DNA of 37,052 nucleotides from Candidatus Theseobacter exili (GTDB lineage: Bacteria; Auribacterota; JACPWU01; Theseobacterales; Theseobacteraceae), in assembly GCA_030765365.1 (NCBI GenBank), contig JAVCCS010000092.1:1-37052 (forward strand). Direction: 5' to 3'. The notes under the pieces were generated by a model. It searched no databases and had not been told where the DNA came from. It saw only the letters and a program-made list of their open reading frames with translations. Every line of letters starts with the position of its first letter. The stretch's first letter is position 1. Shown piece after piece: positions 1 through 3,781 of the stretch. Position numbers and translations under genes: made by a program.

Positions 1-501
1 ACCGTAACTGTATTTGACCATACAGCCACCGTAACCATTTCCGGAAACGCTGTTGATTTTCCGTATTTTGATCATTTAATTCTATCACCTGCACCCAAAG
101 TATATGGACGAATCAATATCAACACTGCATCTGTTAATGCTTTGCAAGGATTACCCGGAATAACCAGTACATTAGCAACAAATATTAAAGATTATATTGA
201 TGGTCCGGATAATATTTTGTGGACAGGTGACGATGAACTCATTGACACAAAGGGTAAATTATTGAAAGTAACAGGCATAGATGAAGATGAATTTAAAAAA
301 ATCTGCAATCTTGTTACCACTCGAAGCGACGTATTTAAGGTAATTGTAAAAGCCCAGGCAATAAAAGACAGGGGCTCTATAGGCGGAGATATACTTGCTA
401 GCGATGATAACATCACCGCACAATGCACACTGGAAGCTATTGTTGACCGTTCAGATTACCCAAACGTTAAAGTCCTGTATCTGCGTTACAGGGAAGAATA
501 A
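1..501 (+). CDS. 3' part of a GspK-like (T2SS minor pseudopilin) / helix-hairpin-helix protein, truncated at the window start
   Basis: Frame is open from base 1 (TVTVFDHT...). Contains GRININTAS followed by HhH LQGLPGI, then GPDNILWTGDD and TTRSDVFKVIV, the C-terminal pattern of GspK-like proteins. Confidence 0.6.
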   Translation, partial: TVTVFDHTATVTISGNAVDFPYFDHLILSPAPKVYGRININTASVNALQGLPGITSTLATNIKDYIDGPDNILWTGDDELIDTKGKLLKVTGIDEDEFKKICNLVTTRSDVFKVIVKAQAIKDRGSIGGDILASDDNITAQCTLEAIVDRSDYPNVKVLYLRYREE

Positions 502-505
502 AAAA

Positions 506-1405
506 TCACATATTCTTTGCTCTTTTTTTGACGAAACGGTCAAAACCCTCTTCCAGATTTTGAATATTTGATCCGTAATACTTGTACAGCATCTTATTGG
601 TATCGCCGGATTCCATACAATCTTTAATAAAAACTGAAAAGGTTGATTCAGGCCAGTTCATCCTTAAAAAAGCTACAAACCATTTCGCGTTTTCGTAGAA
701 CGATTTTACAGCGGTTGTGCTTAAACCGTAAATTTTTGCGTTTATGAGGCTTTTTACTGAATAACCGTAATATTTTTCACTAAACACTGCTCTTTTGCTT
801 TTTTTCGTCCCTTTGAACGCAGCATATGCAAACTTCTCGTACCATTCTGCAAGGCCTTCGTTTAACCATAAAGCAGGCTTTTTTCGAAAAAATCTATTGA
901 ATACAATATGCGTCATTTCGTGTGAAAAAATAGCGGCACTTCCCGAATTATCCGGCTTTTGCTGCAGGAACATAACGGTACTCCTGACAAAAGAATCAGC
1001 CCACTTATAGGTAACAGGCACACTTGATTTAAAATAATCCCAGCTCTCTTTGTCCTTAAAAATAAATATGTGCGAACGCCCTTTTACACGGTCTTTAATA
1101 TCACCGCCCAAATCATCAGGAATATACGCATAAAAAAACTCCGCCATCCTGGCTACCTTACGTGCATATATTGTCTTTTGGTAATGAATAACAAAATGAT
1201 CTGTCCGAGCATGTTTCCACTTAATTTCAGGCAGGTTTAAAGCTGACTTGCCAAATAAAGTAAGGGTATCTTTCTCATAATCACCATCGTTAACAACCTG
1301 CCAGGAAAGCTTTCGTTTACCTTTATCAATTGCAGAAAAAGCAGGCAAAGCCAAAAACACAATCAAAACAAACACCAAACTCTTTTTGGGGTCAGGTCTT
1401 AACAT
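506..1405 (-). CDS. Secreted gluzincin (peptidase MA-like) metallopeptidase
   Basis: Signal peptide KKSLVFVLIVFLALPAFSA; TDHFVIHY; HEMTH followed by PALWLNEGLAEW (HExxH...E). The ATG lies inside the left inverted repeat, with GGAG 9 nt upstream. Confidence 0.75.
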   Translation of the reverse strand: MLRPDPKKSLVFVLIVFLALPAFSAIDKGKRKLSWQVVNDGDYEKDTLTLFGKSALNLPEIKWKHARTDHFVIHYQKTIYARKVARMAEFFYAYIPDDLGGDIKDRVKGRSHIFIFKDKESWDYFKSSVPVTYKWADSFVRSTVMFLQQKPDNSGSAAIFSHEMTHIVFNRFFRKKPALWLNEGLAEWYEKFAYAAFKGTKKSKRAVFSEKYYGYSVKSLINAKIYGLSTTAVKSFYENAKWFVAFLRMNWPESTFSVFIKDCMESGDTNKMLYKYYGSNIQNLEEGFDRFVKKRAKNM

Positions 1406-1411
1406 TTAACA
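1388..1411 (+). repeat. Left terminal inverted repeat GGGGTCAGGTCTTAACATTTAACA
   Basis: Exact reverse complement of 2385..2408 (24/24). Confidence 0.95.
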
Positions 1412-2333
1412 GTTTCTCCAATTTTTCAACACTTTTTGCCAACTGGCCATGTGTAAAAAACTTTTGTCTAAATCTCTTAATTTGCATACAAACTGCAGCA
1501 TATTTAAGACCACCTTCATTTTCACCAATTTGAGCTAAGGTATATCCTGTATGCTCTTTAGCCAGGTACATTCTTAAGTTTCTTTTTAAATTATTATTCA
1601 CATGCAAATCCCTTACAATATTTCTAATCATATCGTAATCAATATGATTTTTTCTAAGAGCTTTCAATTCCGGTAAATTCTCGTCATCAAGATCAGTCAA
1701 ATACTCATTTTTCACATATTCAACAAAATCTGAGTCACCAACTATTGGACCACATGTATTATTTTTAATTTTTTGATCCACATAATCCTTAACCTCATTC
1801 ACAAACACGGTATAGCTCTTTCTTGCGTTACTTTCCGTTTCACCAAACAAACTCAATATAAAATTTACTTCCAACCATTTCGGTGTTTCCCTCTTGTTTA
1901 CAAAATATTTGAAGCTTGATGATTCATAATCGAATGGCGTTTTTGCAATTAATGCCTTGACTGGATTTAAGTGAATATATGCCGATAAATAATGCAAATA
2001 TGACTCTATATCTATAACAACAGCTTTATAACGCCCCCTGAATAATGGACCTTTACGCTGCCTTTTTCTATTGTAATATACGCTGTACCCAACATTTATT
2101 GTATGCATTACCCGATTTAAATTAGCATTAGGTGTTTCAACAATGAGGTGATAGTGGTTATCCATAAGGCAGTAACTATGAATTTTTGCACAATATTTTT
2201 TGTTAACCAGTTCAAGATATTCAAAAAATTTATCATTGTCCCTGGAATTGTCAAATATTTTTATCTGCCCAAGTCCATGCTGAAAAACATGGTAAAAAGC
2301 CCCCGGATATTCTATTCGTAAAGGTCTGGCCAT
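1392..2333 (-). CDS. REP-associated-type tyrosine transposase (Y1_Tnp, HUH) with a C-terminal DnaA_C-like HTH
   Basis: MARPLRIEYPGAFYHV N-terminus; YCLMDNHYHL (HUH); GPLFRGRYKA; YIHLNPVKA (catalytic Tyr); C-terminal MYLAKEHTGYTLAQIG HTH. Start moved to ATG 2333 on the basis of a GGGAG RBS. Confidence 0.92.
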   Translation of the reverse strand: MARPLRIEYPGAFYHVFQHGLGQIKIFDNSRDNDKFFEYLELVNKKYCAKIHSYCLMDNHYHLIVETPNANLNRVMHTINVGYSVYYNRKRQRKGPLFRGRYKAVVIDIESYLHYLSAYIHLNPVKALIAKTPFDYESSSFKYFVNKRETPKWLEVNFILSLFGETESNARKSYTVFVNEVKDYVDQKIKNNTCGPIVGDSDFVEYVKNEYLTDLDDENLPELKALRKNHIDYDMIRNIVRDLHVNNNLKRNLRMYLAKEHTGYTLAQIGENEGGLKYAAVCMQIKRFRQKFFTHGQLAKSVEKLEKLLNVKT

Positions 2334-2369
2334 TATTAAACTCCCTAAATTTATATATTCAATATGTAA

Positions 2370-2397
2370 ATTATACATACATATTGTTAAATGTTAA
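2370..2397 (-). promoter_or_regulatory. Putative sigma70 promoter of the transposase, with its -35 inside the right IR
   Basis: TTAACA (2397-2392), 16 nt spacer, TATAAT (2375-2370), 36 nt upstream of the ATG. Confidence 0.5.
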
Positions 2398-2408
2398 GAC
2401 CTGACCCC
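2385..2408 (-). repeat. Right terminal inverted repeat (TGTTAAATGTTAAGACCTGACCCC on +)
   Basis: Exact reverse complement of 1388..1411. Confidence 0.95.
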
Positions 2409-3424
2409 ATTATTTTTGAATATACTTCATCAACAGTAAGAGCATTAAGGCATTCATAGTTTTTGGGACAATCATGAGGTAAACATTCTTCACACCCAAC
2501 ATCTTTCTGCAGAGCTATATCATTCTTTCCAACCGGGCCCCAGACATTTGGGCCAAGATCTTTATGTTTACGCCCAAAAATAGCTATTACTGGAGTTCCT
2601 ACTGCGGTTGCAAGATGGACAGGACCTGAATCGTTTGAAACTACAATGGCAGCATTTTTTAATACTGCGGCTGTTTCTTTTATTGTAAGTTTTCCCGTTA
2701 AATCACATATATTATCTTTGTTACTTCTTTTTATCCTCTTCCCTAAGTCTTCTGAACCGGGACCGCCGATTATTACACATTTTAATTTGTTCTCTTTAAT
2801 TGTTTTTGCACACAAGGCTTCAAATCTATCGAGTGGCCACTTCTTTGATCTGCAGCTGGCATCAGGATGAACAGCAATATATTTGTCCGTTTCTTTAATG
2901 CCCTCTTCTTCTAATAGTTTTCTCACTTTTTCTTCAATTTCTTCAGGCACATATACAACCGGCTCCCGAGACACTACAGGAATGTTCAAATATTCAAGCA
3001 TTTCAAAGTTGTAGTCCATCTCATGCTTTAATGCTTTCCGCTTAAGATATGGAAGTTTATCTGTTAGCAAAAATCCCATTTTTCTACTCCAACCAACTCT
3101 TCTTTTTATCCTTGCCAGCCAGCTGATTAGATTTACACGATTCGTACTGTGTAATATGAGTACAAGATCAAACTGCTTTCTTTTTAACCAGTAGGCAAAG
3201 CGTATTGAAGAAAGCCAACTTTTGTGAATTCTTTTTTTATCACATATGATCACTTCGTTTAAATCAGGATTCCCGGCGACAATATCCACTGTGTAAGGAC
3301 GCACCATCATTGCTATATATGCATTCGGATATGCTTGCCTTAATGATTTTATAACCGGAGTTGATAAAACGACATCTCCCAGCCTGTCAGTTCTTGAAAT
3401 CAGTATTTTCTTATATTCATCCAT
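2387..3424 (-). CDS. waaF: LPS heptosyltransferase (GT9, WaaF-like)
   Basis: ILISRTDRLGDVVLSTP, HPDAS..SKKWP, DLTGKLT and VVSNDSGPVHLATAVGTPVIAIFG. Start is ATG 3424 or 3433 rather than 3493. Confidence 0.85.
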   Translation of the reverse strand: MDEYKKILISRTDRLGDVVLSTPVIKSLRQAYPNAYIAMMVRPYTVDIVAGNPDLNEVIICDKKRIHKSWLSSIRFAYWLKRKQFDLVLILHSTNRVNLISWLARIKRRVGWSRKMGFLLTDKLPYLKRKALKHEMDYNFEMLEYLNIPVVSREPVVYVPEEIEEKVRKLLEEEGIKETDKYIAVHPDASCRSKKWPLDRFEALCAKTIKENKLKCVIIGGPGSEDLGKRIKRSNKDNICDLTGKLTIKETAAVLKNAAIVVSNDSGPVHLATAVGTPVIAIFGRKHKDLGPNVWGPVGKNDIALQKDVGCEECLPHDCPKNYECLNALTVDEVYSKIMGSGLNI

Positions 3425-3570
3425 GTTTACCATATATCCCTTTTTATGAAGATAACCATAGTTTTTACACCAGAGCATACTTTTATTCAACATGAGATTT
3501 TATAATAGGGAGGTTAGATTAGTGTAAATGCAAACAGGAATTACAGAATCAATTACGCATTCCCATATAG

Positions 3571-3607
3571 AACAAAAGGCTCACAGAAGATTGTCCTGTG
3601 AGCCTTT
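3571..3607 (-). terminator. Intrinsic terminator after tRNA-Glu
   Basis: 12-bp perfect stem AAAGGCTCACAG (3575-3586) / CTGTGAGCCTTT (3596-3607), with a 9-nt loop and a TTTTGTT tail on the minus strand. Confidence 0.8.
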
Positions 3608-3610
3608 ATT

Positions 3611-3688
3611 TGGCGACCCCGACGGGATTCGAACCCGTGTTCCAGGCTTGAAAGGCCTGTGTCCTAGACCAGGCTGGACGACGGGGTC
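3611..3688 (-). tRNA. tRNA-Glu(TTC)
   Basis: GACCCCG...CGGGGTC-G-CCA acceptor stem; anticodon arm CAGGC-CT-TTC-AA-GCCTG; T arm GGTTCGAATCC. Confidence 0.97.
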
Positions 3689-3705
3689 ATCAAGTAATAT
3701 TTTTC

Positions 3706-3781
3706 TGGTGGGTCGCCCGAGACTCGAACTCGGCACCCACGGCTTAAAAGGCCGTTGCTCTACCGGATGAGCTAGCAACCC
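3706..3781 (-). tRNA. tRNA-Lys(TTT)
   Basis: GGGTTGC...GCGACCC-A-CCA; anticodon arm ACGGC-CT-TTT-AA-GCCGT; T arm GAGTTCGAGTCTC. Confidence 0.97.

Follow-up and report, generated by a model that had tools for sequence, protein, structure and literature searches.

A probable TIRtron in Candidatus Theseobacter exili whose terminal inverted repeats carry predicted stop and start codons of the adjacent genes

What kind of element keeps its terminal repeats inside the coding ends of both neighbouring genes, and is it a resident of that place or a passing insertion? The question is raised by a locus in a 37,052-nt stretch of Candidatus Theseobacter exili (assembly GCA_030765365.1, contig JAVCCS010000092.1, positions 1 to 37,052; hereafter the window). 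Three open reading frames (ORFs) lie there head to tail, all on the minus strand: a GT9 heptosyltransferase, a protein with a Y1_Tnp domain and a 299-aa ORF that resembles a secreted peptidase. The Y1 gene is framed by a perfect terminal inverted repeat (TIR), and we conclude that gene and repeats together are very probably a TIRtron, a cassette that encodes a RAYT-like protein of the TIRYT type. An earlier note on this DNA had described an HUH transposase element whose repeats form start and stop codons of its neighbours, and had suggested that the element is either locked in or serves as an invertible or excisable switch that controls the peptidase.

The inverted repeat and the codons it carries

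A repeat search placed the two arms at 1387-1411 and 2385-2409, where they form a 25-nt inverted repeat that is 100% complementary, with 973 nt between the arms. No other perfect inverted repeat of at least 17 nt within 3 kb was found in the 37-kb window, and the remaining four of the five inverted-repeat pairs listed for it are 83-89% complementary. By arithmetic at 37.5% guanine plus cytosine (GC), about 4e-7 perfect 25-mer pairs within 3 kb are expected per window. The repeat had previously been described as perfect and 24 bp long; its perfection stands, and its length has to be corrected to 25 nt, with one extra base at each outer end (T...A). In the whole 2.76-Mb, 88%-complete assembly, a motif search of the kind that the earlier note had proposed found exact matches to GGGGTCAGGTCTT at the two arms only, plus one site with a single mismatch on another contig. 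A looser TIR pattern, searched across this genome, detected neither TIR dimers nor a solo TIR.

Both arms are read as coding sequence. The heptosyltransferase ORF ends in ...KIMGSGLNI, with its TAA (2389-2387) within the right arm and its tail (M)GSGLNI coded by the TIR. The Y1 ORF ends in ...LLNVKT, with its TGA (1394-1392) within the left arm. In another frame, this same arm holds the ATG (1405-1403) of the peptidase-like ORF, which begins with MLRPDP... (ATG-TTA-AGA-CCT-GAC-CCC) and is preceded by a GGAG within the 3' end of the Y1 gene (Table 1). An earlier start of the peptidase-like ORF is impossible because an in-frame TAA lies immediately upstream of the ATG. Translation from ATG 1405 gives a canonical signal peptide (MLRPDPKK, a hydrophobic core and FSA), and the alternative starts TTG (codon 10) and GTG (codon 11) would drop its charged n-region; ATG 1405 is the best predicted start. 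The earlier readings of the GSGLNI-TAA end in the right copy, of the NVKT-TGA end and the MLRPDP start in the left copy, and of GGAG as the ribosome-binding site (RBS) of the peptidase all agree with the sequence. The peptidase-like protein has no Pfam match in this copy, and many of its homologues carry a precomputed PF13485.

Assignment to the TIRtron class

The N-terminal domain of the Y1 protein matches Pfam Y1_Tnp (PF01797, E 3.4e-9), and its residues H60-Y-H62 and Y119 (in YIHLNP) are invariant in 44 aligned homologues. All 44 homologues and the stored gene call agree with the Met start given in Table 1. The C-terminal 80 residues match PDB structures of DnaA domain IV (E 1.7e-7 to 6e-5) when the family profile is used, and the same profile finds 4er8 weakly (E 0.12); in a single-sequence search of PDB, the protein retrieved DnaA alone (E 0.55). 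Bac_DnaA_C scores 22.3 bits on this protein by itself, under the Pfam cut-off of 31.5, and many of the homologues carry a precomputed PF08299. An AlphaFold2 model, built from the alignment of 44 homologues, has a mean predicted local distance difference test (pLDDT) score of 83.5. Its top Foldseek match is 4er8_A (E. coli TnpA-REP; E 8e-7, template modelling score 0.74 on the target), followed by IS200, IS608 and ISDra2 TnpA. The predicted structure shows a RAYT fold with intact HUH and Tyr residues. These matches bear out the earlier description of a Y1/HUH transposase-like protein with a DnaA_C-like helix-turn-helix (HTH).

RAYT-like genes with flanking TIRs were named TIRYTs, and their cassettes TIRtrons, by Di Nocera et al. 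2013 (BMC Genomics 14:522), who described the TIR consensus GGGGWSAS, TIRs that overlap the 5' or 3' end of the TIRYT, and TIR families that occur as dimers in some genomes. According to Quentin et al. 2018 (BMC Genomics 19:475), most TIRYTs belong to subclass 2.1, and the C-termini of subgroup 2.1.2 are Bac_DnaA_C-like or HTH_23/28-like. The available text of Di Nocera et al. 2013 and Quentin et al. 2018 reports no TIRYT activity or biochemistry, which is in line with the earlier statement that the subgroup is known from bioinformatics alone.

Four TIRtron features are present in the window element: a Y1/HUH domain with HUH and Tyr, flanking TIRs, a GGGGWSAS terminus, found as GGGGTCAG at both outer ends of the repeat, and a C-terminal HTH, here of the Bac_DnaA_C type. 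The likeness extends to a RAYT-like protein longer than RAYTs, to TIRs in the place of REP hairpins, to a TIR that overlaps the TIRYT 3' end, and to a single copy without a repeat family, as reported for several species; no class-defining feature given in the available descriptions is different here. Single arms have no significant fold as single-stranded DNA (ssDNA; z +0.2 to +1.5) and are not self-complementary, as expected from the earlier claim that short GGGG-starting TIRs take the place of hairpin ends. We have little doubt that the window element is a TIRtron and its gene a TIRYT, corresponding to subclass 2.1, subgroup 2.1.2, of Quentin et al. 2018.

Two related systems were considered and rejected. 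The element resembles RAYT/REP/REPIN systems (PDB 4ER8) in the best structural match to its N-terminal domain, in a gene framed by inverted cognate repeats, and in a single copy that appears vertically inherited; related genomes contain gene-less inverted dimers, analogous to REPINs. However, classical REPs are palindromes with a GTAG tag that make up dispersed, high-copy families; the window repeats are not individually palindromic, begin with GGGGTCAG and not with a GTAG head, and form no repeat family, with two occurrences in the genome, and E. coli TnpA-REP (165 aa) is without the extra DnaA-IV-like domain of the window TIRYT. With IS200/IS605 elements (IS608, ISDra2 TnpA), the TIRYT shares the Y1/HUH fold and, by analogy, may share the chemistry of single-strand cleavage and joining. 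The ends of IS200/IS605 elements are asymmetric subterminal hairpins without TIRs, and such elements usually occur in several copies and often carry tnpB. In contrast, the ends of the window element are perfect TIRs that form no hairpins, the three-gene array is free of tnpB, no tnpB-like ORF occurs between 1 and 5000, and the genome holds one copy plus two 34%-identical Y1 paralogues. These paralogues (G000:C147:569-1117 and G000:C290:4085-4558) are open frames of 253-277 aa, and no inverted repeat of 17 nt or more was detected around either.

Beyond the published descriptions of TIRtrons, the locus and its relatives may add the host phylum, a bipartite TIR whose inner box resembles a -35, neighbouring genes with TIR-coded stops and starts, and an arrangement kept in a 67% identical relative, although the 2013 paper (Figure 9, supplements) may already contain some of this.

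Anatomy of TIRtrons across the family

TIRYT matches were identified in 33 of 41 sampled genomes of the phylum and in 7,343 of the 8,000 scored candidates from a metagenomic protein collection; the names attached to homologues point to Omnitrophota. From the 33 matching genomes, we compared 52 loci (the window locus, 31 and 20 further). Inverted repeats of 17 nt or more flank the gene at 39 of them. The 13 loci without such a repeat, among them the two paralogues of this genome, mostly encode homologues that are shorter or more distant. The inner end of the upstream TIR typically lies 25-50 nt ahead of the TIRYT start codon, and 29 of the 39 TIRtrons have their TIRYT stop within the downstream TIR.

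When 26 TIRs were anchored on GGGTCA, they gave a bipartite consensus, made up of an outer box, GGGGTCArrCCTt, and an inner box, TtTTGACa, about 17-24 nt inward of it; the corresponding boxes in the window are GGGGTCAGGTCT (outer) and TTTAACA (inner). In 34 of the 44 metagenomic homologues, the protein ends in K or E followed by T, V, P or I, as in a translation of the outer box (...AAG-ACC-TGA followed by CCCC, and variants). A TIRYT stop within the TIR is a hallmark of the family and not a local peculiarity. Because 34 of the 44 C-termini match the outer-box translation, the same can be said of the use of the TGA of TGACCCC as this stop, which for these 44 homologues is deduced from their proteins.

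Some relatives show features of their own. A 215-aa homologue (L011, G006:C54) has a 36-nt TIR, at about 1389-1424 and 2176-2211 of the gene-oriented (reverse-complemented) sequence, in which two perfect DnaA-box 9-mers, TGTGGATAA and TTATCCACA, flank GGGGTCAGG. DnaA boxes in this TIR are of interest given the DnaA-domain-IV-like HTH of longer family members. The Y1 genes of two TIRYT loci (L007, G010 and L018, G033) and of a locus with a 221-aa homologue (L028, G027), from three different families of the phylum, lie just upstream of a radical S-adenosylmethionine (SAM) gene (TYGCQMN), which we take to be MiaB/RimO-like. The TIRYT and the radical-SAM gene of L018 are separated by a small GIY-YIG-like ORF, and a similar ORF is found about 1 kb downstream of the TIRYT in L027 (G035).

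A predicted promoter in the upstream TIR

Upstream of the window TIRYT, a sigma-70-like promoter match, TTAACA-16-TATAAT, has its -35 hexamer inside the TIR (Table 1). It scores 11/12 and is the best of 10 matches in 400-3700. Across the family, a match of at least 9/12 with the -35 in the TIR was found in 9 of 27 upstream arms versus 2 of 27 downstream arms read inward. The inner TTGACA-like box probably supplies the -35 of the predicted TIRYT promoter.

Neighbouring genes that end or start in TIRs

The earlier note had held that the repeat tolerates gene junctions by supplying codons, and had proposed asking whether the overlap with neighbouring start and stop codons exceeds chance. On either side of the TIRtrons, the closest neighbouring ORF of 100 aa or more was scored (67 in total), and the long-ORF junctions of this genome, called in the same way, served as a control. 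Stop (3') ends reach at least 15 nt into the TIR in 15 of 41 cases (any overlap, 19 of 41; control, 9.2% of 1518). Start (5') ends do so in 4 of 26 cases (any overlap, 7 of 26; control, 9.6% of 1514). Stops in TIRs are enriched about four-fold and recur across the family, and starts are not enriched, that of the window peptidase being one of few; the proposal holds for stop codons and fails for start codons.

Several of these neighbours are validated by Pfam. The genes that end in a TIR include a CCA-adding/polyA polymerase (...KGVKS and stop) in two species, a DUF72 protein (...EGVKS) whose domain stops 4 residues before the GVKS tail, a caspase-domain protein (...LGSNL and stop) and a DUF4279 protein. 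One Pfam-validated gene, an RsmI-like methyltransferase, has its ATG within a TIR; for another TIR-borne start, of the form "MPDP..." (L074), Pfam gives no support. A comparison of gene-less dimers with ORF-end overlap in 100-nt flanks was discarded, with nearly all frames open in the high-GC genome.

Residence and mobility

In the protein collection, the best match to the window TIRYT has 67% identity and the second best 44%. The longest contig listed for this 67% TIRYT is 11,016 nt, and the same length is given for a heptosyltransferase (67%) and for a homologue of the peptidase (72%). In this relative, the heptosyltransferase ends in ...QKKLGSGLNN, a TIR-coded tail, and the TIRYT ends in ...MLNVKI. 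The relative's element appears to be oriented as here, because the GSGLNN and MLNVKI tails cannot come from one arm. We infer that the same three-gene arrangement exists in the relative, as diverged as the host genes are, and hence that it was inherited vertically. The "locked in" fate, one of the two outcomes that the earlier note had considered, fits this arrangement and a TIR without further copies in the genome.

Arm covariation between this genome and the 67% relative was considered and set aside, as the relative's arms, judged from the protein tails, appear imperfect and give no ground for claiming a compensatory pattern. In the 72% peptidase homologue on the 11,016-nt contig (P0002), the N-terminal 75 residues read like an out-of-frame translation of the conserved region, so that the gene is frameshifted or the assembly is in error. 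The 40 species-representative genomes that were searched contain no close relative (best TIRYT 41%, best peptidase 29%).

Three pairs of orthologous TIRtrons from other genera share their flanks in the same orientation (L013/L059, L033/L034 and L060/L070). Candidate empty sites in congeners did not withstand inspection: L071 against G014 gave paralogue matches only; for L069 against G014, homology ends exactly at the TIR and the far flank is not syntenic, as in a rearrangement; and for a G014 dimer against G022, the position is taken by other genes.

Gene-less inverted TIR dimers, 40-120 nt across, were detected in G030 (L083-L087) and G014 (L088-L089), with the same TIR as that of the resident TIRtron. 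At both of the two alignable G030 dimer sites, the congener G038 (L097 and L100) has a dimer at the same position with G038-type arms. This small sample, two of two sites, suggests that TIR arms at fixed sites evolve in concert and in a genome-specific manner. Paired, species-specific arms at orthologous sites resemble RAYT/REPIN systems.

Five salt-lake metagenome runs hold 5-37% of the sampled words, and four of them were mapped as Logan contigs; among the matches listed in the run search there were no RNA runs. No contig bridges an empty site in the four mapped runs, where the element has a depth of just about 1-4. A single contig of run X3 has a joint from 1411 to 2385, at a depth of 2 and with a 24-letter short side wholly within the repeat. 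The joint links the inner arm ends, as in the gene-less dimer form (a 50-nt palindrome), and is inseparable from a fold-back or mapping artefact.

Proposed explanation and alternatives

Taken as one package of identity, residence, promoter, coupling, autoregulation and cleavage model, we consider the following explanation probable. The cassette would have entered, or been built at, a junction where the final codons of the heptosyltransferase met the opening codons of the peptidase. At this junction, the inward-reading TIR would have supplied a stop in two of the three frames, and the outward-reading TIR stops in all three frames as well as an ATG. The cassette would since have been inherited vertically in the heptosyltransferase-TIRYT-peptidase array, and is probably fixed because both neighbours now use TIR codons. 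The inner box is predicted to be the -35 of the TIRYT promoter and may also be an operator for the HTH. The peptidase would be co-transcribed with the TIRYT and, because of the 14-nt overlap of the two genes, is probably translationally coupled to it. Predicted binding of the TIRYT at the TIR would autoregulate both the TIRYT and the peptidase. The outer box is a candidate recognition and cleavage site: by analogy with RAYT/REPIN systems, the arms would pair in ssDNA and be cut at the GGGG foot. Any TIRYT activity in this genome would have left no further copies of the TIR.

Several observations weigh against this explanation. The scanned region contains 10 promoter-like sites against 12.3 expected by shuffling, which is no excess. 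The overlap control comes from one genome and from heuristic long ORFs, and the loci compared are not independent (L013 and L059 are orthologous). Adjacency of the three genes in the 67% relative is deduced from the shared longest contig of 11,016 nt and the TIR-coded tail. No TIR-coded tail is seen on the heptosyltransferase of highest identity (88%, on a 2,156-nt contig), which ends in ...KIQKY; the element could be absent there, lost or mobile, or the contig could stop at this point. The junction is also offset by 3 codons (...SKI/M-GSGLNI here versus ...LQKK/L-GSGLNN in the 67% relative), which leaves room for possible independent insertions. The arms are identical at 25 of 25 positions here and appear from the two protein tails to differ at no fewer than two positions in the 67% relative; their identity here fits either selection or a younger insertion. 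Finally, TIRYT pairs that are 81-83% identical lie in unrelated flanks (L063/L064 and L066/L067). The family moves on evolutionary time scales, and both long residence and occasional relocation occur.

Several of these points would suit an active insertion sequence that inserted recently, is still able to excise and transpose, and overlaps the codons of its neighbours by accident. Such an element would account for the perfect arms, the intact catalytic residues, the similar TIRYTs in unrelated flanks and the 88% heptosyltransferase homologue without the tail, and the gene-less TIR dimers elsewhere show that the family can proliferate. However, the element occurs once in this genome, where its TIR forms neither solo copies nor dimers. 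The best-matching TIRYT (67%) has diverged to the same extent as the neighbours that list the same longest contig (67% and 72%), with the heptosyltransferase tail already TIR-coded there, and the next homologue is only 44% identical. A recent and active insertion is unlikely.

A device acting in RNA would draw on the same arms. In transcripts that read through from the heptosyltransferase, the arms would form a 25-bp stem in which the peptidase ATG is hidden and which RNase III could cut; transcripts from the TIR promoter would lack the upstream arm and could translate the peptidase. The perfectly complementary arms, the three genes on one strand and the ATG in the downstream arm would allow this, and transcription from the predicted promoter would begin beyond the upstream arm. 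However, what is conserved best in the TIRs of proteins only 30-40% identical is a fixed GGGGTCA and not mere complementarity, and this conservation points to recognition by a protein rather than to a generic stem. Although compatible with a resident TIRtron, the RNA device is very unlikely.

The switch of the earlier note, in which recombination between the arms would flip or remove the 973-nt segment and turn the peptidase on or off by altering its RBS and promoter, is permitted by the geometry (inversion would keep the TIR codons of both neighbours and replace the peptidase GGAG and upstream region) but finds no support and is barely credible: the three-gene array read contains no invertase-type serine or tyrosine recombinase gene, Y1/HUH enzymes are not known to act as invertases, the three syntenic ortholog pairs are all co-oriented, left flank to left and right flank to right, and the two tails of the 67% relative, which cannot come from one arm, probably place its TIRYT 3' end on the far arm, as here, with reads that are too shallow to exclude rare events.

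Beyond the resident TIRtron proposed for this locus, a much wider generalization can be formulated, which we offer as speculation that is quite unlikely to hold as a whole. TIRYT/TIR systems might be long-lived, vertically inherited replicators like RAYT/REPIN systems and not decaying transposons, and the bipartite TIR might be a selected gene-boundary module, with the outer box as cleavage site, three-frame stop and TIRYT TGA, the inner box as -35 and HTH operator, and arms kept identical in concert throughout a genome. At this locus, the TIRs would serve as a functional heptosyltransferase 3' end and as peptidase start, RBS context and promoter, and host genes would depend on the element; the peptidase would be autoregulated by the TIRYT and possibly gated by arm pairing in RNA or ssDNA.

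TIRYTs are very common, yet the available literature on them shows no activity, substrate or role. The locus and its relatives provide a testable anatomy, in which the outer box is the probable site of binding and cutting and the inner box a likely operator and promoter. A TIR that ends the reading frames of its neighbours offers a reason why such cassettes can sit in tightly packed gene arrays. For genome annotation, a repeat can be the source of short C-terminal tails (GSGL.., GVKS, GSNL) on otherwise unrelated proteins, and likewise of N-termini of the form M.RPDP or MPDP.

Coordinates and surroundings of the locus

Table 1. Positions of the putative TIRtron and of its adjoining genes in the window
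Feature	Position	Strand	Basis and remarks
Upstream TIR arm (gene orientation)	2385..2409	.	Minus strand inward = TGGGGTCAGGTCTTAACATTTAACA; last 7 codons of the heptosyltransferase + TAA; -35 hexamer of the predicted TIRYT promoter
Downstream TIR arm	1387..1411	.	Perfect reverse complement of the other arm; last codons of the TIRYT + TGA; ATG and first 6 codons of the peptidase-like gene in another frame
TIRYT gene	1392..2333	-	313 aa from MARPLRIEYPGAFYH; longest ORF to 2378; likely start = 16th codon, ATG at 2333
GGGAG ribosome-binding site of the TIRYT	2341..2345	-	Sequence reading; 7 nt before the ATG
Sigma-70-like promoter TTAACA-16-TATAAT (predicted)	2370..2397	-	Consensus match only; -35 at 2397-2392 inside the TIR, -10 at 2375-2370
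GT9 heptosyltransferase (WaaF/RfaF-like)	2387..3424 (ORF 2387..3493)	-	Pfam PF01075, E 2.4e-34; likely start MDEYKK as in the 88% homologue
Secreted peptidase-like gene	506..1405	-	ORF; 299 aa; HExxH (HEMTH); ATG inside the TIR; 14-nt overlap with the TIRYT 3' end
GGAG before the peptidase ATG	1416..1419	-	Sequence reading; 10 nt before the ATG; inside the TIRYT coding sequence

Next to the heptosyltransferase on its upstream side, the window encodes tRNA-Glu(TTC) and tRNA-Lys(TTT) (3611-3688 and 3706-3781, both on the minus strand), followed by a 14-bp terminator-like stem (hairpin 3607-3575, minus strand). Contigs of the mapped runs from many organisms stack at these tRNAs to a depth of 16-62, as expected for tRNA.

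The first ORF of the window (1-501, plus strand) is cut by the contig end and corresponds to the C-terminus of a helix-hairpin-helix protein, which we take to resemble GspK. A homologue of it (33% identity, E 3e-25) is found in L058 (G002:C67), convergent to a TIRtron in a genome of the same class and with no peptidase between them, and the neighbourhood of a GspK-like ORF and a TIRtron may be an old shared location.

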